NCBI GenBank assembly: GCA_045105635.1
Contig: JBGCDU010000015.1
Span: 8,695 to 72,694, forward strand
Direction of reading: 5' to 3'
DNA: 64,000 bases
From: Congregibacter sp.
GTDB taxonomy: Bacteria > Pseudomonadota > Gammaproteobacteria > Pseudomonadales > Halieaceae
Below the pieces are notes generated by a model, which saw only the letters and a program-made list of their open reading frames with translations, was not told the origin of the DNA and made no database searches. Below, one piece after another: positions 45,061 to 55,795 of this stretch. Position 1 is the first letter of the stretch; each line of letters opens with the position of its first letter. A program made the position numbers and the translations under genes.

Positions 45061-46283
45061 TTGCTTTTTTGCGAACCCGTATGCGCAGTTCCGCGCTGCC
45101 GATACTTTTGCTCGCTGCAGGAATCGGTCTCAGCGGCTGTGTCAGCAAAACTGTCAAAAGTACGAAAGTATCCGCACTGATACCACCGGCGACGGCGGTG
45201 CCAGAAAACGAGTTACTTGACGTGGCAATCGCCATCTTCGATCCCGGTCTGGACCTGGCGGACGAGGACGAGCGCATCTATCCGGAAGTACGCCGGGCCG
45301 AGGCGCGATACATACCCAATGTACTCGCTGACGTTCTGGAGGACTCCGGGGCCTGGGGCGCTGTGCGCGTTGTACCTGACGAGGAGCGCATATCCGACCT
45401 GATGGTCACCGGTACCATCGTGCATTCGGACGGCGAGTCGCTGGAGTTAAAAATTATCGCGAGAGACTCCCGAGATTACGTGTGGCTTGACAAAGCCTAC
45501 GAGGGAAACGCCAGCCGCTACGCCTACGACGCCAAAACGCGCTCGCAGTACGACGCATTCCAGGGCGTGTACCATCAGATTGCCAACGACCTCGTGCGCA
45601 AGTTTGATCTGCTCGACAGCGCCCAACGCAAGGATATTCGCACGGTCTCTGAGCTACTGTTTGCCAAGAGCTTCTCGACAGATGCCTTCGACGGCTATCT
45701 CGACAAGACGCGCAAAGGCAAACGACTGGTTGTGAGACTCCCCGCAGATGGCGACCCCATGCTCGAGCGCGTGCGCAAGCTGCGTGAGCGCGATCATGTG
45801 TTCGTAGATACCTTGCAGGCGTATTACAGCGGGTTTTCGGAGGATATGTATGGCCCCTATCAGGAGTGGCGCAAACTCAGCTATCAGGAAGTGGTCGCTT
45901 ACCAGGAGCTCAAAGCGGAGAGCCGCCGTCAGCTGATCGCAGGCGGCGCGGCGATTCTTGCAGGCATCGCGGCCGCCGGTAGTAGTGACGGAAGCGCCAG
46001 AACAGCCGGTAACGTTGCCATCATCGGCGGTGGATATTTACTCAAAAGCGGTCTCGAAAGTCGCGCCGAGGCACAGATTCACGTCGAGGCACTGGAAGAA
46101 ATAGGCCAATCGCTGGAGGCTGAAATTACGCCTCAGGTTATTGAATTAGAGGATCGCACAGTAATGATTAGCGGCACGGTTGAAGACCAGTACGCGCAAT
46201 GGCGCGAAGTGCTTGCCGAGATTTATCGCAATGAGATTGGTGAACTGGTACCGCCAGCACCCGACGCCACGCTCGAAAACTAG
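45057..46283 (+). CDS. Lipoprotein, putative CsgG/TolB-N-like domain plus Gly/Ala-rich hydrophobic hairpin
   Basis: Lipobox GLSGC; alpha/beta N-domain; IAGGAAILAGIAAAG...AGNVAIIGGGYLL. Confidence 0.65.
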   Translation: MIAFLRTRMRSSALPILLLAAGIGLSGCVSKTVKSTKVSALIPPATAVPENELLDVAIAIFDPGLDLADEDERIYPEVRRAEARYIPNVLADVLEDSGAWGAVRVVPDEERISDLMVTGTIVHSDGESLELKIIARDSRDYVWLDKAYEGNASRYAYDAKTRSQYDAFQGVYHQIANDLVRKFDLLDSAQRKDIRTVSELLFAKSFSTDAFDGYLDKTRKGKRLVVRLPADGDPMLERVRKLRERDHVFVDTLQAYYSGFSEDMYGPYQEWRKLSYQEVVAYQELKAESRRQLIAGGAAILAGIAAAGSSDGSARTAGNVAIIGGGYLLKSGLESRAEAQIHVEALEEIGQSLEAEITPQVIELEDRTVMISGTVEDQYAQWREVLAEIYRNEIGELVPPAPDATLEN

Positions 46284-47815
46284 TGTCAGACGAATACCAG
46301 CGGGTAGAACCCACGCCTTTTGACGCGCCGTCTACGGCCGCGCCAAGCGCGCCCGTTGCCGTGGCGGCAGCGCGTCCAGGCTGGCTGGTCCCTGCGCTGG
46401 CAGTTCTGGCGCTGCTGGGAGTATTTGTGGTGTTCCTACTACCGGGATGGGTATCGGATAGGCCGCCCGCCGTCCCGCAACAGTCACAATCGCAGGCCAC
46501 GGCTAACGACGCGGTCAGCAAGCAGCCTCGCAACGATCCGCAATCAAACAGCGACAGCGCGCTCGCCTCCCCCTTCGCCGACGCAGTGGCTGCAAAAGCC
46601 CGTGCAGAAGCACAAGAACTTCTGGCGGAGCTACTGGATATCCAGCAAAACCTCACCGAGCGCGGCGCAGAGTCCTGGGCAGCTGAGATTATGACCGCGA
46701 TCGCCGCCGAAGCCCTGGCAGGCGATGAGCGCTATAAAGAACGCGCATTTGATACCGCCATCGGCCACTACGAAACGGCGCTCGCTGATGCGATTGCTCT
46801 CGAGCAATCTATCCCGGAACGATTTAAGCAGCAGACAGAGTCCGCCAGAAGCGCGATTGAGGCTCTCGATCTCGACACGGCCTTGGCGGCGTACGAGCTT
46901 GCGCAGGCACTAGAACCTGGTGACCCGGCGCTGGGGATTTTGCAGCAAAGGCTCGACGAACTGCCTGCGGTAGTCACTGCGCTGGATAATGCGTCACTGG
47001 CAGAAACAGACAGGGATTTGGATACCGCCGTCGCCGAGCTGCGCAAAGCCGCCGGGCTGGACCCCTTACATCAGCGCGTCCAGAGTGAGTTTGCGCGGCT
47101 TGAGACGGCGCTCAATGAGCAGCGTTTTAATTCAGCCATGTCAGAAGGTTACGCCGCCCTGGACGAGGGCAAATACGAGCGTGCTCAACAGCGCTTTGCG
47201 AGCGCCGCCAAACTGCAACCCGGCTCGGCAGAAGCCGCGGCGGCCCAGCAGGAACTCGCCGTGGCGCGCACCGCTGCGACACTCAACAGACTTCAGAAGC
47301 GCGGCGAAGATTCGCTGGAAAGCGAGGAGTGGGCGGCGGCTATCAAGGCATTCGAAGAAGCGGCTGCAATTGACTCCAGTCTGCGCTTTGCGCGCGAGGG
47401 CCTCGCGTTTGCGCGGCCTCGCGCCTCGCTGGATAAACGTCTCCAGGCCATTCTGGATGAACCACAGCGCCTCGTGGACGACGCCATCTTGCGCGAAGCG
47501 CGCGATACGCTGCAAAAAACCCGAGCGCTCGATAAGCTGGGGCCAAGCCTGACTGACAAAGCCGACGCCGTCGCCAAAACCCTGGCCATCGCCAGTACGC
47601 CGCTCGGCGTGCAGATTCAGTCCGATGGGCTGACAGAAGTTACCGTTTACAAAGTCGCCAGGCTCGGCGCGATCACCGAACGGCAGCTGACGCTGCGTCC
47701 CGGTAAATATACAGCGGTAGGCACCCGGCGAGGATACCGCGACGTGCGCGTTGAGTTTGAGGTCTCCCCGAATGACCGCACACCGATCTATATCGCCTGC
47801 AACGAGAGCATTTAA
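46283..47815 (+). CDS. Bitopic membrane protein with periplasmic helical (TPR-like) repeats and a C-terminal PEGA-like domain
   Basis: TM WLVPALAVLALLGVFVVFLL; Ala/Glu-rich helices; VQIQSDGLTEVTVYKV...LTLRPGKYTAVGTRRGYRD. Confidence 0.7.
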   Translation: MSDEYQRVEPTPFDAPSTAAPSAPVAVAAARPGWLVPALAVLALLGVFVVFLLPGWVSDRPPAVPQQSQSQATANDAVSKQPRNDPQSNSDSALASPFADAVAAKARAEAQELLAELLDIQQNLTERGAESWAAEIMTAIAAEALAGDERYKERAFDTAIGHYETALADAIALEQSIPERFKQQTESARSAIEALDLDTALAAYELAQALEPGDPALGILQQRLDELPAVVTALDNASLAETDRDLDTAVAELRKAAGLDPLHQRVQSEFARLETALNEQRFNSAMSEGYAALDEGKYERAQQRFASAAKLQPGSAEAAAAQQELAVARTAATLNRLQKRGEDSLESEEWAAAIKAFEEAAAIDSSLRFAREGLAFARPRASLDKRLQAILDEPQRLVDDAILREARDTLQKTRALDKLGPSLTDKADAVAKTLAIASTPLGVQIQSDGLTEVTVYKVARLGAITERQLTLRPGKYTAVGTRRGYRDVRVEFEVSPNDRTPIYIACNESI

Positions 47816-49875
47816 TGAGCGAGAACGCCCGCGAGGCCATCAAAGCGGCCGTTTTTGAGCCGCTCGACCCAGCAGCGGTAGAGAAGAAAGCCCGCATACC
47901 CCTCTCGCGAATGCTGCTGATTGGCCTCGTCACGATATTCCTGGTCGTGCTCTGGTTTCTGCTGACATCTCGGTCGCTACAGATCAGCGTAGTAGCCGAA
48001 GAGGAAGCGACCGTTGGTCTATCGGGCTTGGTGCTGCCACTGGGGGGGCGCTATCTTCTGCGCCCAGGCAGTTACGAGCTGCGAGTTGACGCTCGGGGAT
48101 ACCACCCCTACCTCAGCGAGCTGACGGTGGGCAGCGATGCCAGTCAGCGTGAAGAGGTTATTCTTCAACCTTTGCCCGGACGCCTGACCGTCGAAAGCAC
48201 GCCATCCGGGGCCTACGTACTGATCGACGGAGAAATGCGGGGACAGACACCGCTGACCGATCTACCGGTAGAGTTCGGCGAGCACACCCTCAAGCTGCAG
48301 GCTGTCCGATATATTGACCTTGAGCAGGGCCTGACAGTGACCGGCCGTGAAGTACAGCAGCGCTTGTCGCTGCAACTGGCACCCGCCTGGGCCGATATCG
48401 ATGTGAGCAGCACCCCACCCGGGGCCACCGTGCTTATCGATGACGAACCCCTGGGAATCACGCCAGGCGTAATAGAAGTACTGCAGGGAGAGCGTACCCT
48501 CGTTCTGCAGTTGCCGGGCTTTGCGCAGATTAGCAAGACCTTGAACGTTGAAGCCGGGATAGCACAGCGCCTCGACCCGTTCGAACTCATTCCCGCCACT
48601 GGCGTTTTACAGTTGAGCAGCGCGCCCAGCGGGGCAAATGTCAGTGTCAACGGTGAATTTGCCGGACAGACGCCATTAGAATTAGAACTCCCACCCGATA
48701 CAGATCATCGGATCAGCGTGTCCAAGGCCGGGTATCGCCGGGCCAGCGACACATTGAACATGGCGGCAGGCGGCACCGCGACACGTCAGCTTACCCTGCG
48801 CCCGCTCCTGGGTGATGTGCTGGTGCGGGTGCAACCGGCCGAGGCGGAGCTTTTCGTGAACGGCAGGTCCATGGGGCGAGGGAGCCAGACCTTGCCGCTG
48901 CCGGCGGTGTTGCAACGTATTGAATTTCGCCTGGAAGGCTACGAAACCATTACCCGAAGCGTTACGCCCAGGCCAGGGCTGGAACAGCTGCTGGAAGTCA
49001 CGTTAATGACCCCGCAAGCAGCACGCAAAGCACGCCTGACACCCACAATGAACACTGCTCTCGGCCAGCAGATGTTGCTCATGAACCCCATGGATGCGGA
49101 GAAAAACGAATTCTCTATGGGTGCGTCACGCAGGGACCCGGGACGCCGAGCCAATGAAGTGCTGCATCCCGTACGCCTGGAGCGTCCCTTCTACCTACAG
49201 GCACAGGAAGTCACCAACGCGCAGTTCCGACTGTACGAAAGTTCACACAACTCCGGCCAGATCGAAGGCAACAGCCTGAACCGCGAGCAGCAACCCGTCG
49301 CCGGGATTAGCTGGCAGCAGGCAGCGTCCTACTGCAACTGGCTGAGCCGCCGGGAAGGACTCACGCCTTTTTACCTCGAGCAACAGGGCATCATCATCGG
49401 TTTCACGCCCGAGTCCCTCGGTTATCGACTGCCGACTGAGGCGGAATGGGCCTGGGTAGCCAGAGTCGAGGAAGATACACTCAAACGATTTAGCTGGGGC
49501 GAGGATTTTCCGCCCAAATCTGTGGTCGAAAACGTAGCGGACAACAGTTCCGCTTACGTTACCGGGCGGGTTTTGAACGGCTATGACGATGGCTATGTCG
49601 TCAGCGCTCCCACGGGAAGTTTCACTGCCAACTCGCGCGGTATTTTTGATATAGGAGGCAATGTGTCGGAGTGGATTCATGATGTCTACGTTATCCCCGC
49701 TTCCAGCGGCGTTGTGCAGACAGACCCGCTTGGTGGTCAACGCGGAGACAACTACGTCATCCGCGGCGCCAGCTGGGCTCTGGGACGGCTACCCGAGCTG
49801 CGCCTTTCCTACCGCGATTATGGGCAGGCAGGTCGGGATGACGTAGGATTCAGGATTGCTCGCTATGCGGAGTAA
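47815..49875 (+). CDS. Membrane-anchored protein with multiple PEGA domains and an FGE-sulfatase (SUMF1-fold) domain
   Basis: TM; repeated VESTPSGAYVLIDG / VSSTPPGATVLIDD / LSSAPSGANVSVNG; FSMG, EVTNAQF, PVAGISWQQAASYCNWLS, RLPTEAEW, DIGGNVSEW, IRGASW. Confidence 0.88.
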   Translation: MSENAREAIKAAVFEPLDPAAVEKKARIPLSRMLLIGLVTIFLVVLWFLLTSRSLQISVVAEEEATVGLSGLVLPLGGRYLLRPGSYELRVDARGYHPYLSELTVGSDASQREEVILQPLPGRLTVESTPSGAYVLIDGEMRGQTPLTDLPVEFGEHTLKLQAVRYIDLEQGLTVTGREVQQRLSLQLAPAWADIDVSSTPPGATVLIDDEPLGITPGVIEVLQGERTLVLQLPGFAQISKTLNVEAGIAQRLDPFELIPATGVLQLSSAPSGANVSVNGEFAGQTPLELELPPDTDHRISVSKAGYRRASDTLNMAAGGTATRQLTLRPLLGDVLVRVQPAEAELFVNGRSMGRGSQTLPLPAVLQRIEFRLEGYETITRSVTPRPGLEQLLEVTLMTPQAARKARLTPTMNTALGQQMLLMNPMDAEKNEFSMGASRRDPGRRANEVLHPVRLERPFYLQAQEVTNAQFRLYESSHNSGQIEGNSLNREQQPVAGISWQQAASYCNWLSRREGLTPFYLEQQGIIIGFTPESLGYRLPTEAEWAWVARVEEDTLKRFSWGEDFPPKSVVENVADNSSAYVTGRVLNGYDDGYVVSAPTGSFTANSRGIFDIGGNVSEWIHDVYVIPASSGVVQTDPLGGQRGDNYVIRGASWALGRLPELRLSYRDYGQAGRDDVGFRIARYAE

Positions 49876-50148: not shown

Positions 50149-50949
50149 ATGAAGAAAGGCATCTCCTCGGAGTTTATGTTCCAGCTGTTCGCCCTGCTCA
50201 CGGCGGTGATTCTGGTTCACGCCATGTACGTAGCCGTGATCAGACCCAGTGCTGATACGCAGTTGGAGATAGAGAGAACTGCGCAGGCAGCGGGAGAAGA
50301 CGTCGTACCAAAGCGCAGTCTCGCCGTGGTAATCCGCGATTTTGAGCAGGAGGCCTGCTTCATCCTGCTTATCTGGGCGCTGTCGATTATGGGCTTCAAG
50401 GGTCGACACAATCTGCAGGAGCAAAAACTACTGGAAGAGGAACTCCTATCGATTCCGGAGGGGACCAGCGTACTGCCCGAGGATGCCCGGCAATACAGTC
50501 GTTCCATGGAGGCGTTGCCCGCTGAGCAGCAGGCGCTGCTCTTACCGCGGGCATTGATGTCAGCGCTGCAGCGCTTCGCGACGACCAGCAGCATCCCCGC
50601 GGTCTCCGATACAATTCGCGAGCAATGCGATGTCGAGTCCGACCGTCTCGACTCGGAGCTATCCATGGTGCGCTACATCGCCTGGGCGATCCCGTCGATC
50701 GGGTTTATCGGCACCGTGCGCGGCATCGGCGACGCACTGGGTCAGGCCTACAAGGCGGTGGAGGGCGATATCTCAGGCGTTACGGTCAGCCTCGGCGTGG
50801 CGTTCAACAGCACCTTCGTAGCTTTGATCCTCTCGATCGTCATTATGTTCTGTTTGCACCAATTGCAGCTGTCGCAAGAGCGTCTGGTCCTCAACTGCCA
50901 GCGCTACGCCGATAACCGTCTGATGCGCTTTCTCGTAGCCGAAAACTGA
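50149..50949 (+). CDS. MotA/TolQ/ExbB proton-channel family protein
   Basis: Four hydrophobic segments; AWAIPSIGFIGTVRGI and GVTVSLGVAFNSTFVAL match the ExbB/TolQ PxxGxxGTVxG...IxxALxxT signature. Confidence 0.92.
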   Translation: MKKGISSEFMFQLFALLTAVILVHAMYVAVIRPSADTQLEIERTAQAAGEDVVPKRSLAVVIRDFEQEACFILLIWALSIMGFKGRHNLQEQKLLEEELLSIPEGTSVLPEDARQYSRSMEALPAEQQALLLPRALMSALQRFATTSSIPAVSDTIREQCDVESDRLDSELSMVRYIAWAIPSIGFIGTVRGIGDALGQAYKAVEGDISGVTVSLGVAFNSTFVALILSIVIMFCLHQLQLSQERLVLNCQRYADNRLMRFLVAEN

Positions 50950-50963
50950 GAGGCTCGAACATC

Positions 50964-52280
50964 ATGCCAATACTTGATTGTCGGGATACCCGCATCTGCC
51001 TGTGGCAGGACAGCGGCGCGACGCACAGTCCGGGATTCGTATTACTAGACGGGCAGGAGTACCAATTTGGACAGGCCGCGCGCGAACAGTCTCGTGTGCG
51101 ACCGCGCGACAGCAGCAGTCGCTTTTGGTGGCAACTCAGTACGCAGCCCCTGAAGCCAGGTCTGGGCACAGCGCGACATACGGCGGATCTGGTGCACGCG
51201 CATCTACGCTATGTACTGGAGGCTGCAGGCGGCCCTGAGCAACTGGCCCTGGCCGTGCCGGACAGCATGCCTCGGGAACAGCTCTCGCTGCTTCTGGGGA
51301 TTGCGCAGGCATGCGAGGTCACAGTGGCGGGTCTGGTGAGTCGCAGCGCACTCATGGGTAGTAACTCTCCCCTGCTGGCCTCATCAACGCGCTTTCTGCA
51401 TCTCGAGGCGCAGCTCAACCAGACGATAGTGAATGAGCTGGTCGTAGATGGCGACCGGATAAGTCTCGCGCGCAGCACGCCGCTGCCGGCCTGCGGACTC
51501 CTGGCTCTGCAGGAGCGCTGCGTGAGCGCCATCGCCAGCGCGTTTGTGCAGCAGACTCGATTCGACCCGCGACGCAGCGCGTCCAGCGAGCAGCTGTTGT
51601 ACAACCAACTCCCAGGCATTCTGTCTACGCTCGAAGAGCGCGGCGAAGTCAGTGTGGATATTGATGGCCATCGTTGCCGGGTAAATTCCGCGGCTTTCGC
51701 CAACGTCAGTGAAAAACTCTTGGCCGGCGTCGCGCAAGCGCGCGCCGCCGACGAACTGCCTCTGCTCATCGACCCAGAGCTGCAACAGCTGCCAGGAATG
51801 AGTGCCCTGACCGGTATGGTCGCCACTCTGGACGAAGATGCGCTGTGGCACGCCTGGGAGAAGCAGCATGCTCATGTGCAGGATGTCGGCAAAGACAATC
51901 ATCTGATCGATCGCCTACCGACGCTGCATCACAATGGATCGGCTGCGATCGTAAGCAACGGGAACGACGCCGCACGACAACCGGCAATGCGGTCACCAGC
52001 GGCGGCGGTTGACGCATCGAAACAAGCTGGCCAGCAAGCGCGGCAACACGCATCTGCCACTCACATCCTCATTCATACGCAGGCGCTGCCATTGCGCGGC
52101 GAAGAGATTATCCTCGGTGAAGGTTTTTGCCTTCGCGCCAGTAATGGGCATTGGACCTTGCACGGCGACGGTGGGCTTATCAACGGATTGCCGAGCACCT
52201 CGCAACAGCCCCTGCACTTGGGCGACACTCTGTCTCTTGGAACGGCTGGGCACGGACGCCTGATCGAAGTTCTGGACTAG
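50964..52280 (+). CDS. Cytoplasmic degenerate Hsp70/actin-fold protein with a C-terminal FHA-like domain
   Basis: ILDCRDT; SPGFVLL..YQFGQAAREQSRVRP; LAVPDSM..EQL..L..IAQAC; FDPRRSASSEQLL follow the Hsp70 NBD layout. C-terminal LINGLP...PLHLGDTLSLG. Confidence 0.6.
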   Translation: MPILDCRDTRICLWQDSGATHSPGFVLLDGQEYQFGQAAREQSRVRPRDSSSRFWWQLSTQPLKPGLGTARHTADLVHAHLRYVLEAAGGPEQLALAVPDSMPREQLSLLLGIAQACEVTVAGLVSRSALMGSNSPLLASSTRFLHLEAQLNQTIVNELVVDGDRISLARSTPLPACGLLALQERCVSAIASAFVQQTRFDPRRSASSEQLLYNQLPGILSTLEERGEVSVDIDGHRCRVNSAAFANVSEKLLAGVAQARAADELPLLIDPELQQLPGMSALTGMVATLDEDALWHAWEKQHAHVQDVGKDNHLIDRLPTLHHNGSAAIVSNGNDAARQPAMRSPAAAVDASKQAGQQARQHASATHILIHTQALPLRGEEIILGEGFCLRASNGHWTLHGDGGLINGLPSTSQQPLHLGDTLSLGTAGHGRLIEVLD

Positions 52281-52292
52281 GGAAACGCTGGC

Positions 52293-53387
52293 GTGGCAAG
52301 ACGCAATAAACGCAGTTTCACAACGTTCAACCTGTCGTTTCTGGACATTATGTCCTGCGGCTTTGGCGCGGTGATCCTTGTCTACCTGATTATCGACCAC
52401 GCGATCATTGTCGAGTCCGAGGAACTGAACGTGGACTTGCTCTCGGAGGTCAATCTTCTTGAGGAGGATATCCGGGACGGCCAGGAGAACATGGTAGCCC
52501 TGCGTAACACGCTGGATGAGGTAGATCTCGAAATCGTGACCACCGAGGGTCGCGCGACACGGATCATCGATGAGGTCCAGGAGTACGAAGCCTTAATCGC
52601 CTCACTCATCCCCGAAGATGTCAGCGAGGAAGAATCGGTCGAGAAACTTAAGGCCGAGGTACAGTCGCTGGAAGAGGAAGTAAAAAAACTGCGCGAAGCG
52701 GCTGAAGAAGAGAGCGGCAAAAGCGCGCGCACCTTTGTCGGTGACGGCAATCGCCAATACCTCACGGGCCTCAATCTGGGTGGGCGCAATATTGCGATCA
52801 TGCTGGACGTCTCGGCGAGCATGCTCGCCGACAAACTGGTAAACGTCATCAGGCTGCGCAATATGGATGAGGATCTGCAGCGCAGTGCAGAAAAGTGGAC
52901 CCGGGCGCTGAAAACAGTAGACTGGCTGACCGCACAATTGCCGGTGGGGAGCGAGTATCAGGTGATTACCTTCAACACGCAGGCGCAATCCGCATTGCCC
53001 GAGACCGATGGCAAATGGCTGGAAGTAGCGAACCAGGCACAGCTCGAGGAGTTGTCCGAGGCGCTGCTGGAGATTACGCCCGCAGGCGGAACCAGTCTGG
53101 AAAATGCGTTCACGTACCTGCAAAAACTCTCACCTGTGCCGGACAATATCTTTTTGATTACCGACGGACTCCCTACACAGGGGGCAAGCACGCCACGCGG
53201 CACCACCATCAGCGGCAACGCGCGTCAGCGTCTCTACCGGCAGGCGGTGCGCCAGCTGCCCGCCAACGTTCCGGTGAACATTATTCTGGGCCCGATGGAG
53301 GGCGACCCCCTCGCCGCCTCCGAGTTTTGGCGCCTGGCACAAAATACGCGCGGGTCGTTTATGAGTCCCTCCAGTGACTGGCCATAG
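52293..53387 (+). CDS. ExbD/TolR-like TM + coiled coil + VWA domain protein (subunit 1)
   Basis: NLSFLDIMSCGFGAVILVYLII TM with Asp; acidic coiled coil; MIDAS DVSASM, GGTS, LITDG. Confidence 0.85.
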   Translation: MARRNKRSFTTFNLSFLDIMSCGFGAVILVYLIIDHAIIVESEELNVDLLSEVNLLEEDIRDGQENMVALRNTLDEVDLEIVTTEGRATRIIDEVQEYEALIASLIPEDVSEEESVEKLKAEVQSLEEEVKKLREAAEEESGKSARTFVGDGNRQYLTGLNLGGRNIAIMLDVSASMLADKLVNVIRLRNMDEDLQRSAEKWTRALKTVDWLTAQLPVGSEYQVITFNTQAQSALPETDGKWLEVANQAQLEELSEALLEITPAGGTSLENAFTYLQKLSPVPDNIFLITDGLPTQGASTPRGTTISGNARQRLYRQAVRQLPANVPVNIILGPMEGDPLAASEFWRLAQNTRGSFMSPSSDWP

Positions 53388-53398
53388 GACATTGATCA

Positions 53399-54397
53399 AT
53401 GCCTAGAAAACGTCGCGAAATGGCCGAGTTCTCTCTCTCCTTCCTGGATGTGATTTGCTGCGGTTTTGGTGCGGTAATCCTGCTTCTGATGATTACCAAA
53501 ACCGTACAGCCGCAGATCATTGAGGCATCTACGGTCAACCTCGAGGGACTCGTTGCGGATCTCCAGGAACAGGTTTTTGAGATTCGCGGTGAGACGCGAT
53601 TCCTTAACCGTGACTTGAACGCACGCAAGGAACAGCTGTCTGAGTATAAGGACCGAATTGCCATACTACGCGGCCAACTGGCCGCTGCGCGCTCGAGCTA
53701 CGACAGCCTGCAGGTAGAGACGAACACCAACTCTGTGGTCACCGAGCAATTGGCCATCGCACAGCAATCGCTGACACTGGAGATGCAGCGCCTGCTGGAA
53801 GATATAGAAGTAAGCAATAATTTGATCGGGGGGATACCCGTTGACAGCGAATACATCATTTTCGTGATCGACACGTCCGGATCGATGTTTTCCTACGCCT
53901 GGGATCGCGTGCTGCAGGAACTGGAAGCGATTTTGAACATCTATCCGAACGTGAAGGGCATCCAGATCATGAACGATATGGGCAACTATATGTTCAGTCG
54001 CTATCGCGGACAGTGGATACCCGACACCGATGGACGACGGCGCATCATCATGCAGAACCTGCGCAACTGGAACGTATTCAGCAACTCATCGCCGGTCGAG
54101 GGCATCACCGCCGCGATTCGCTCGTTTTATGATCCAGACAAAAAGATTAGTATCTATGTATTCGGAGACGACTTTACCGGCAATTCCATCGCCCAGGTCG
54201 TCAACACCGTCGACCAGATTAATCGCGAAGCCAGTGATGGCGAGCGTCGGGTTCGCATCCACGCCGTGGGCTTTCCAGTACTATTTCGTCAGGCCGCGAA
54301 CAGACAAGGTAGCGTGATTCGCTTCTCTGCACTGATGCGCGAACTGACCTATCGCAACGGAGGGACTTTTGTCGGACTCAATGACTTCAGACCCTGA
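53399..54397 (+). CDS. ExbD/TolR-like TM + coiled coil + VWA domain protein (subunit 2)
   Basis: SLSFLDVICCGFGAVILLLMIT TM with Asp; coiled coil; MIDAS IDTSGSM, VFGDD. Confidence 0.85.
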   Translation: MPRKRREMAEFSLSFLDVICCGFGAVILLLMITKTVQPQIIEASTVNLEGLVADLQEQVFEIRGETRFLNRDLNARKEQLSEYKDRIAILRGQLAAARSSYDSLQVETNTNSVVTEQLAIAQQSLTLEMQRLLEDIEVSNNLIGGIPVDSEYIIFVIDTSGSMFSYAWDRVLQELEAILNIYPNVKGIQIMNDMGNYMFSRYRGQWIPDTDGRRRIIMQNLRNWNVFSNSSPVEGITAAIRSFYDPDKKISIYVFGDDFTGNSIAQVVNTVDQINREASDGERRVRIHAVGFPVLFRQAANRQGSVIRFSALMRELTYRNGGTFVGLNDFRP

Positions 54398-55100
54398 CTA
54401 CATTGGCGACGCTCACTCCGGTGATAGCCTAGAACTCAGCCATGGCAGCGCGCGCGCCGCCCGAGCGCAACTATATTGGCCGCTGCTACTTATGTTGGCG
54501 CTAGTCGCAGGCTGTGGCACAAAGGAAGTCGTCGTGGTCGGTAACTTTCCGCCGCCGCTAATGCAGCAGCTACCGGTGTCGCTCGGCGTCTGGTATGAAC
54601 CGGAGTTCAGCGGTCACGAGTTTTTTGATGAGGCCAAAGGCCGCGCAGATTCGTCCTGGATAGTAAAAACCGGCGAGGCGCAGGTACAGATGTGGGACCA
54701 GTTGCTGGACGGCATGTTCACACGCGTGCAGCCCATGGACGGCAAGCCGGCGCCGGAACAGATGAACCCGGCAGTGGACGCGGTGCTCATACCCCGAGTA
54801 GACGAACTGCAATATGCTATTCCCGCGCATACCAACGTCAAGGTCGACGAAATCTGGATGCGCTACGCTTTTGAATTGGTCACCACCAACGGCGATGTTA
54901 TAGCCGAATGGACCATGACGGCCTACGGCAAAACGCCCACCGCATTTCTGCAAAGCGACGAGGCTGCGGTCAATCTCGCCGCCGTGGTCGCGCTTCGCGA
55001 CGCGGGCGCACACTTTATCACCAGTTTTCACAACGTTCCGGAGGTTGCCCAGTGGCTGGAAGACCTGCAACAAGATCAACCCACCGCGGCTGCGCTCTAG
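54381..55100 (+). CDS. Lipoprotein of unknown function
   Basis: Lipobox LVAGC; alpha/beta body. Start is uncertain. Confidence 0.7.
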   Translation: MTSDPDYIGDAHSGDSLELSHGSARAARAQLYWPLLLMLALVAGCGTKEVVVVGNFPPPLMQQLPVSLGVWYEPEFSGHEFFDEAKGRADSSWIVKTGEAQVQMWDQLLDGMFTRVQPMDGKPAPEQMNPAVDAVLIPRVDELQYAIPAHTNVKVDEIWMRYAFELVTTNGDVIAEWTMTAYGKTPTAFLQSDEAAVNLAAVVALRDAGAHFITSFHNVPEVAQWLEDLQQDQPTAAAL

Positions 55101-55126
55101 TGCGTAGTCCGGTGCGCAGTAAAGGA

Positions 55127-55795
55127 ATGAGTACCATGCGGCACTTACGCTGGTGCCTGGCGGTGCTTCCGCTGGCGCTCACCGGCTGCGTAACATCGAC
55201 CGTCGATGAGATGGTTTTCAATGCGCCTACCGAGGGCATTGGCGATGCTACCGTGGTTATCCTCGGGCGCCGGCATGCCAGCGACTACGAAACCGAATTC
55301 GATTTCATCGAGTGCATCGCAGACCATGTAGTGGCGCGCGACGGCAGCATTGAGATCATTGATGAAATCGAGTTCATTAACGCGCTGTACCCCTGGTTTG
55401 AGCCGCGCACCGCACCGTTACGACCCGTAGACATCGATCGCCTGATGCAAATAGAGCCGGTAGCCGAAGAACTCGCGAACCTGAGGCTCGAATACATGAT
55501 CTGGATCGATGGCAGCACTGTACGCACCAACTCTGCGGGCTCAATGACCTGTGGCGTAGGGCCCGGCGGCGCGGGTTGCTTTGGATTTGGCACCTGGGGT
55601 GATGCCTCGGATTACGAAGCGACAATATGGGACTTCACTGATCAGGCTGAGGTTGGCCGCCTGAACACCTCGACAAGCGGGCAATCCTACATGCCTGCGG
55701 TGATCATACCGATTCCAATTATCGCGCCAGTGCAGGGCACGGCCTGCGACGGCATGGGCGATCAACTGCTGGAGTTCCTGTCCAGTGAACACTAA
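55127..55795 (+). CDS. Lipoprotein of unknown function
   Basis: RBS aaagga, ATG 55127, lipobox ALTGC, Cys pair in TCGVGPGGAGC. Confidence 0.7.
   Translation: MSTMRHLRWCLAVLPLALTGCVTSTVDEMVFNAPTEGIGDATVVILGRRHASDYETEFDFIECIADHVVARDGSIEIIDEIEFINALYPWFEPRTAPLRPVDIDRLMQIEPVAEELANLRLEYMIWIDGSTVRTNSAGSMTCGVGPGGAGCFGFGTWGDASDYEATIWDFTDQAEVGRLNTSTSGQSYMPAVIIPIPIIAPVQGTACDGMGDQLLEFLSSEH

Follow-up and report, generated by a model that had tools for sequence, protein, structure and literature searches.

The window, meaning the whole 64,000-nucleotide stretch of Congregibacter sp. DNA that was analysed, contains a run of thirteen closely packed plus-strand genes at about 42.2 to 57.2 kb; all features described below lie on the plus strand. 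One of these genes, here termed the target (50964..52280), encodes a protein of 438 aa that was resolved by open reading frame analysis, AF2 modelling and Foldseek searching into an Hsp70 nucleotide-binding domain (NBD)-like domain, a disordered linker and an FHA-like domain. The open reading frame was judged to be real, with an ATG at 50964, a stop at 52280 and the sequence GAGG 10 nt 5' of the start codon, and it is separated by 14 nt from the stop of the preceding gene and by 12 nt from the next start codon. That preceding gene, directly upstream, specifies a MotA/TolQ/ExbB-like channel subunit (50149..50949; PF01618, E 3.6e-14). Downstream of the target are two paralogous genes for TM(Asp)-coiled-coil-vWA proteins, the first (52293..53387) assigned to the 'TPH-vWA' type by domain scan and by the main text of PMC12204202, and the second (53399..54397) identified from the open reading frame list and locus comparison. 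Further upstream, g04 (46283..47815) encodes a bitopic TPR protein whose N-terminus is a Ser/Thr kinase domain in sister lineages, and g05 (47815..49875) encodes a bitopic protein with four PEGA repeats and an FGE-sulfatase fold, its C-terminal domain being GldK-like as determined by domain scans. No J-domain or GrpE partner is present in the operon. The operon specifies a predicted proton motor, and among its products the target alone is a soluble cytoplasmic subunit. The flanking genes match the 'TolQ-like plus paired TPH-vWA' motor type, which is known by prediction only (Williams-Jones et al., Mol Biol Evol 2025, PMC12204202). Neither an Hsp70-like nor an FHA partner is named there for these motors: the term 'Hsp70' is absent from the article's main text, in which 'FhaC' is the sole match to 'FHA'.

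Scans of the target protein against Pfam, NCBIfam and PADLOC returned zero matches, and a defence-system reading was dropped in the absence of a PADLOC match. Searching PDB sequences with the target by phmmer, or with the family profile, produced chance matches only. Among 40 relatives, a Pfam scan gave nothing below E 0.02, with single weak matches to unrelated families. A whole-genome search with PF00012 recovered DnaK and, on a different contig, one weaker locus; the target gene was not matched. The close homologues, from Congregibacter and other Halieaceae, are all annotated as 'hypothetical protein', and a homologue search started from a distant family member yielded no informative names. 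The family is large: a 40-sequence profile detected 1,824 representatives of 50% clusters when the threshold was E<=1e-3, and 958 when it was E<=1e-30. Neither Pfam nor NCBIfam has a model for it. A search of about 8.4 million papers and preprints found no description of the target family or of an Hsp70-FHA protein beside TolQ-like genes. The vWA-ternary, GTPase and Hsp70 conflict systems of Kaur et al. 2020 (eLife) and a Ferrigenium preprint were considered and found to be unrelated to the target system.

The position of the target within the operon is nearly invariant. A TolQ/MotA-like gene on one side and two TPH-vWA genes on the other were found in 100 of the 101 genome loci with readable neighbours. 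In L142 the MotA-like gene has been relocated behind the second vWA gene, and the fetched loci L137 and L140 showed no MotA-like gene. Across 82 loci, mostly from Halieaceae, the order g03, g04, PEGA/FGE gene (g05 in the window), small open reading frame, MotA-like gene, target, first vWA gene, second vWA gene, g11, g12 and M48 was kept wherever the contig allowed it to be followed. Among 401 gammaproteobacterial genomes sampled across the class, there were 17 full-length and 3 short family matches. Comparison of 19 of these 20 loci (all but that of the window itself), covering about 17 gammaproteobacterial families, demonstrated conservation of the module in all 19, with the MotA-like gene directly upstream of the target in 16. 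Phylum-level genome samples, which were weighted towards non-carrier relatives, contained three carriers only. The target is the fastest-evolving member of the operon, with 25-40% identity as compared with 41-64% for the MotA-like subunit and 40-57% for the vWA pair. Wherever a locus was long enough to contain the whole gene, the gene was intact and, as described below, its C-terminal domain is constrained; a reading as a pseudogene or decaying gene was accordingly dropped.

An AF2 model of the target built from a 40-sequence alignment (pLDDT 86.3, pTM 0.70) was ordered from residue 1 to about 320, disordered over residues 324-361 (pLDDT below 50) and formed a beta domain at residues 362-438. 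When the model was compared with the PDB by Foldseek, the best 50 matches were all Hsp70-type NBDs, including those of Hsp70/Hsc70, BiP, DnaK, Ssb, Ssz1 and Hsp110, with E values of 1e-13 to 3e-12, a target-normalised TM of about 0.6 and 11-15% identity. Residues 1-320 (50964..51923) thus have the Hsp70 NBD fold, with lobe IB shortened (Foldseek E 1e-13 to Hsc70/BiP/DnaK NBDs). Alignment of a 138-sequence family profile with 15 gammaproteobacterial DnaK/HscA NBDs by hhalign gave a probability of 97.7% and an E value of 9e-12 over 309 columns. This result required both the deeper profile and the DnaK/HscA alignment, and a shallow 40-sequence profile aligned with a single DnaK sequence gave no match. 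Several remnants of the Hsp70 core are common to Hsp70 and the target family, namely FGxxA...P, AVP at the position of the proline switch, Q..L..G and the lobe IIB helices. Because of these remnants and the 97.7% hhalign probability, the N-terminal domain is considered to be derived from Hsp70, beyond being merely ASKHA-like. A preliminary description of this DNA, made from the letters alone, had claimed an Hsp70-type fold, with no substrate-binding domain and no TM segment, and had proposed structure prediction as the check for an ASKHA fold. The AF2 model bears out the first of these claims by returning the Hsp70 NBD fold itself. The other two also hold: past residue 320 there is only the disordered linker and a 77-aa FHA-like domain, with neither a substrate-binding domain nor a lid, and the protein has no TM segment.

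The nucleotide-binding motifs of Hsp70 were located in the target by combining the hhalign map with the order of strands in the AF2 model, and all of them have degenerated. The phosphate-1 motif, D-LGTT in Hsp70, corresponds to residues 5-9 of the window protein (D5-CRDT; 50976..50990; AF2 model and family alignment), the consensus among 138 diverse family members being [ED]-L-N-D; this mapping is the less certain one, as the global hhalign alignment skipped strand 1 and the assignment rests on a count of five strands before helix 37-43. The phosphate-2 motif, D-LGGGT in Hsp70, is represented by EAQLNQT at residues 148-154 (E148-AQLNQ; 51405..51425; hhalign map and family alignment), with a family consensus of [DE]-[LI]-Q-L-H-Q. 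At the NEP motif, which carries the catalytic Glu, the window protein has S126-R127 and the family D-x, and the adenosine motif V-G-G reads I-D-P (GG replaced by D270-P271) in the window protein and L-S/D-H/P in the consensus. About 32 aa of lobe IB, comprising the segment with the catalytic Lys, are missing from both. No glycine of the phosphate-1, phosphate-2 or adenosine motif was found in any of the 138 members, and Thr-Thr is absent from the phosphate-1 remnant of the target. These findings substantiate the earlier claim that both phosphate loops are degenerate.

The cleft of the N-terminal domain has nonetheless been kept under selection. Position 5 is acidic in 132 of the 138 members and position 148 in 136; these are the Mg-coordinating positions in Hsp70, and both are retained. 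Asp is found at position 8 in 136 members, Gln at position 150 in 106, Leu at position 151 in 128 and Gln at position 153 in 106, so that conservation of the cleft residues D8, Q150, L151, H152 (Asn in the window) and Q153 lies at 77-99%. The pattern of conservation thus indicates a cleft under selection that is yet no canonical ATP site. Given the loss of the glycine loops, the adenosine GG and the catalytic-Lys segment, the N-terminal module most likely neither binds ATP canonically nor hydrolyses it, and we infer that the protein lacks ATPase activity. The conserved cleft might still accommodate a nucleotide or a different ligand non-canonically.

The C-terminal part of the protein begins with a fast-evolving linker (residues 321-361; 51924..52046), disordered in the AF2 model and only 14% identical among close relatives. 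It is followed by a truncated FHA-like beta sandwich from which the pThr-binding loops have been deleted (residues 362-438; 52047..52277; model, Foldseek and alignment). Modelled alone, residues 355-438 reached a pLDDT of 91, and the best approximately 47 PDB matches to this domain were all FHA domains, with probabilities of 0.9-1.0, TMq of 0.6-0.67 and weak E values of 0.07-1. These matches include KIF1A, FhaA, GarA/OdhI, Ki67, YscD, EmbR and EssC, as well as PDB 3oun (FhaA-MviN). The target itself does not reach the Pfam FHA (PF00498) cut-off; some family members exceed it (P0240, E 3e-11; P0275, E 9e-9), and the C-terminal part of the family profile matches canonical FHA proteins in unrelated genomes. 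In the alignment, the FHA domain of kinase-linked relatives follows the pattern ...G-[IV]-S-R-x-H-C...D-H-S-x-[YH]-G-[ST]-x-[LV]-N-G...GD. Relative to these canonical-type members, the window's clade carries a deletion of about 21 aa that takes out the GR...S-R-x-H loops and a further deletion of 4 aa within the S-T-N-G-T loop. None of the pThr-binding residues (the Arg of GR, the Ser and His of S-x-x-H and the Asn of S-T-N-G-T) is left in the target, and the family alignment contains no conserved Arg or Ser across positions 378-405. The preliminary description had proposed an FHA-like C-terminal domain lacking the phosphothreonine motif; the structural matches and the Pfam FHA scores of relatives agree with the former, and the two deletions account for the latter. 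Among close relatives the FHA remnant retains 67% identity, as against 14% for the linker, and it is thus still in use.

The state of the FHA domain was then compared with that of g04. Among genome and look-up loci in which both a canonical-type FHA domain and the g04 position were visible (L144, L149, L155 and L156), g04 carried an N-terminal Pkinase domain in 4/4, and the S-R-x-H motif was found in none of about 15 kinase-less loci, the window included. A set of 80 metagenome loci was seeded from the kinase type with a 14-sequence alignment and counted only where the g04 N-terminus was visible; 23 had both kinase and S-R-x-H, 6 the kinase only, 1 neither and 1 S-R-x-H only. When the loci were pooled, S-R-x-H was present in the FHA domain of 27/33 with a g04 kinase and of 1/17 without, corresponding to an odds ratio of 72 and a Fisher p of 2e-7, a value that ignores shared ancestry and overstates the support because the lineages are not independent. 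The association is imperfect, with 6 kinase-bearing loci that lack S-R-x-H and 1 kinase-less locus that has it. A further state was observed in three genomes of 1.7-2.0 Mb, where the target is reduced to about 310-345 aa and the FHA domain is absent; the g04 of these three genomes is also shortened, having only a signal peptide and lacking the cytoplasmic tail. Collectively, these data reveal a three-state covariation in which the state of the FHA domain tracks the cytoplasmic part of g04. This three-state series, the quantified covariation of kinase and FHA domain and the deletions of the pThr loops are new here.

In the window, the cytoplasmic part of g04 consists of a short tail that bears the motif DEYQRVEPTPFDAP (46289..46330; tail alignment). 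Other kinase-less gammaproteobacterial families have this motif in the form [DE][FY]xx[IV]xPxx[FW][DEQ]; it reads DEYQRVEPTPFD in the window and DGFKTIKPAPFD, NDFEIIKPAQFE and DEFERIAPATWQ in three other families. On comparison of the tails, a motif of similar form, IKAAVFEPL (47839..47865), was identified in the cytoplasmic tail of g05. Apart from the target, the operon encodes no cytoplasmic protein that could read the g04 and g05 tails. Elsewhere in the genome there are four further Hanks kinases as well as two canonical FHA proteins. Phosphorylation in trans may occur, though the pocket to read such a mark is gone.

The explanation that we prefer, with moderate confidence, is that the target serves a conserved envelope machine of 10-13 genes as its single soluble cytoplasmic subunit and would act there as a non-catalytic, two-module adaptor linking the g04 tail to the motor. 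The core of this machine would be formed by a TolQ/MotA-like pentamer and a pair of transpore-helix vWA proteins. The N-terminal module, descended from the Hsp70 NBD and presumably non-catalytic, would provide a protein-docking platform made up of the conserved cleft and the lobe-IB surface (RFWWQL, ARHTADL and QTRFDP..A..EQ.LY), and the C-terminal module would be an FHA descendant held on a flexible tether of about 40 aa. In sister lineages, the cytoplasmic Hanks kinase of g04 would make a phospho-mark, and the S-R-x-H-bearing FHA domain presumably reads it. In the window's lineage, which has lost both the kinase and the pThr loops, what is left of the FHA domain would bind the short conserved g04 tail without phosphate, while the NBD-like body is predicted to dock on the cytoplasmic face of the motor.

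Three other roles were weighed against that of an adaptor. The conservation of the cleft raises the question of whether the target is instead a nucleotide-regulated switch, in which ATP/ADP-Mg, or some other phosphorylated ligand, would be bound non-canonically by the acidic pair and the Q-L-H-Q loop, and closure of the lobes would gate or clutch the motor. This is consistent with the near-universal retention of the acidic positions 5 and 148 and of D8, with the persistence of AVP, Q..L..G and the lobe IIB helices, and with the presence of Ssz1, an ATP-binding but non-hydrolysing Hsp70, among the best structural matches. However, the glycines of all three motifs are missing from all 138 members and the catalytic-Lys segment is deleted, whereas to our knowledge every active member of the ASKHA superfamily keeps DxG-type loops; we therefore consider such a switch unlikely. 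A role as an assembly chaperone, which would hold the vWA proteins or MotA-like subunits before membrane insertion and stand outside the finished machine, is less probable still. Although Hsp70 ancestry and tight operon coupling with the vWA genes fit this role, the lack of a substrate-binding domain, of an operon-encoded J-domain or GrpE partner and of the ATP motifs argues against it, as does the covariation of the FHA domain with g04 and not with the vWA genes.

The preliminary description had envisaged a dedicated cytoplasmic scaffold or filament, with a role like that of MreB, PilM or FtsA, anchoring the motor. A dedicated cytoplasmic scaffold for the motor is in keeping with the near-invariant synteny and with the covariation of the FHA domain and g04. 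The filament part of this proposal fared differently, because the closest folds are Hsp70 NBDs and the nucleotide loops are absent. Polymerisation of the target into an actin-like filament (MreB/ParM/FtsA-like), by which the motor would be anchored or positioned, could draw only on the ASKHA fold and on the analogy with PilM and FtsA, both cytoplasmic ASKHA proteins bound to bitopic partners. It is nevertheless highly improbable: no MreB, ParM or FtsA occurs among the best 50 structural neighbours, the loops that drive actin-like polymerisation are the ones that have been lost, and the target, present in the operon as a single copy, evolves faster than its MotA-like partner. Of these roles, that of a non-catalytic adaptor between the g04 tail and the motor remains the one that we favour.

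If the target is such an adaptor, it is tempting to extend its role to that of a cytoplasmic clutch of a 5:2 proton motor, a proposal that we put forward only tentatively. In most environmental lineages, a periplasm-sensing TPR kinase would phosphorylate the complex, and reading of this mark by the FHA domain would engage or release the motor; in the window's marine lineage the clutch would be constitutive, through a phosphate-independent tail motif; and in genome-reduced relatives both the FHA domain and the tail would have been lost. Were this the case, Hanks-kinase/FHA signalling would be seen for the first time to govern a Tol/Mot-type motor, and the family would document a route from a regulated to a hard-wired assembly. 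TolQ-like/vWA motors have so far been a two-component computer prediction only, and the target adds their cytoplasmic side. The kinase/FHA input found in relatives, together with this cytoplasmic subunit, offers handles on the action and switching of the machine, and the family displays decay of an FHA domain in step with loss of a kinase.

For the kinase-bearing form of the family, functional parallels are found in type VI secretion, where Fha1 acts with PpkA/PppA threonine phosphorylation, and in mycobacterial FhaA, which binds the MviN pseudokinase. The kinase-bearing relatives would share with Fha1/PpkA a cytoplasmic FHA protein that reads the mark of a bitopic Hanks kinase with a periplasmic sensor and thereby controls an envelope machine. 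In contrast, the window's protein has neither a partner kinase in its operon nor a pThr pocket, and its FHA domain is fused to an Hsp70-like domain.

A different arrangement of an FHA domain beside a TolQ-like channel comes from the AglRQS gliding motor of Myxococcus, in which GltG is predicted to place its FHA domain against the cytoplasmic side of the AglR pentamer, itself TolQ-like (PMC11761067). There, the FHA domain is part of a TonB-like transducer, whereas here it is located on a separate soluble protein, both placements being predictions. The PilM-PilN pair of type IV pili and the cytoplasmic domain of GspL in type II secretion provide an analogy for the g04 and g05 tails: an ASKHA-fold protein docks the short N-terminal tail of a bitopic protein, and that bitopic partner connects to periplasmic and outer-membrane parts. 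The target differs in that its closest fold is Hsp70 and not PilM, FtsA or GspL, and in that PilM binds ATP. With the NBD of Hsp70/DnaK (PF00012; PDB 1hx1, 3gl1 and 4gni, the last being Ssz1), the target shares the fold, the strand order and lobes IA, IIA and IIB. Unlike Hsp70/DnaK, it has no Pfam match and lacks the motif glycines, about 32 aa of lobe IB with the catalytic Lys, the substrate-binding domain and the lid. The target would thus represent a natural example of an Hsp70 ATPase domain reused as a non-catalytic scaffold.

The target, a 438-aa product (50964-52280, + strand) in which a disordered linker joins an Hsp70-NBD-like domain to an FHA-like domain, was consistently the least conserved protein of the operon, with 25 to 40% identity compared with 41 to 64% for the MotA-like protein. 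Among its most conserved positions were family-specific motifs (RFWWQL and ARHTADL) and motifs common to Hsp70. The histidine of the Q-L-H-Q loop, the family form of the degenerate Hsp70 phosphate-2 loop, was near-invariant, being present in 128 of the 138 diverse family members aligned. The window protein and the rest of its Congregibacter-like clade instead carry asparagine at this position (residue 152, 51417-51419).

The operon was retained in three genome-reduced relatives of 1.7 to 2.0 Mb (L151, L152 and L153, from genomes G701, G448 and G780, respectively). At these loci, the target was shortened to ~310 to 345 aa and lacked the FHA domain, and the TPR protein g04 was also shortened, with its TM segment and tail replaced by a signal peptide.

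Several relatives displayed other operon layouts. vWA2 preceded the MotA-like gene in L142 (G522). No MotA-like gene was found within the 17-kb loci of L137 (G592) or L140 (G687), where the PEGA/FGE gene lay immediately 5' of the target. The operon was split in L158/L159 (P0252): the target and vWA pair stood alone, adjoining a HepT/MNT toxin-antitoxin pair, with no MotA-like gene or PEGA/FGE gene upstream of the target. Within the window, the listed start of ORF 54908-55795 runs ~190 nt into the preceding gene; the true start is probably an internal Met ahead of a lipoprotein signal (MSTMRHLRWCLAV...LTGC).

An FHA-like cytoplasmic domain was also observed at the N-terminal start of the PEGA/FGE protein in some metagenome variants (L195, 4221-6614; L185, 4317-6920). 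In L195, which has this domain, the target also bore a canonical FHA and g04 lacked a kinase. An unrelated phospho-signalling pair, comprising a canonical FHA protein and a Hanks kinase encoded <4 kb apart (G000:C3:93022-96994), lies elsewhere in the window's own genome.

The two bitopic proteins, g04 (46283-47815) and the PEGA/FGE protein g05 (47815-49875), had similar short motifs of the (phi)xPxxF[DE]xP/L type in their cytoplasmic N-terminal tails (46289-46330 and 47839-47865, respectively). These motifs may be twin docking peptides for one shared cytoplasmic partner.
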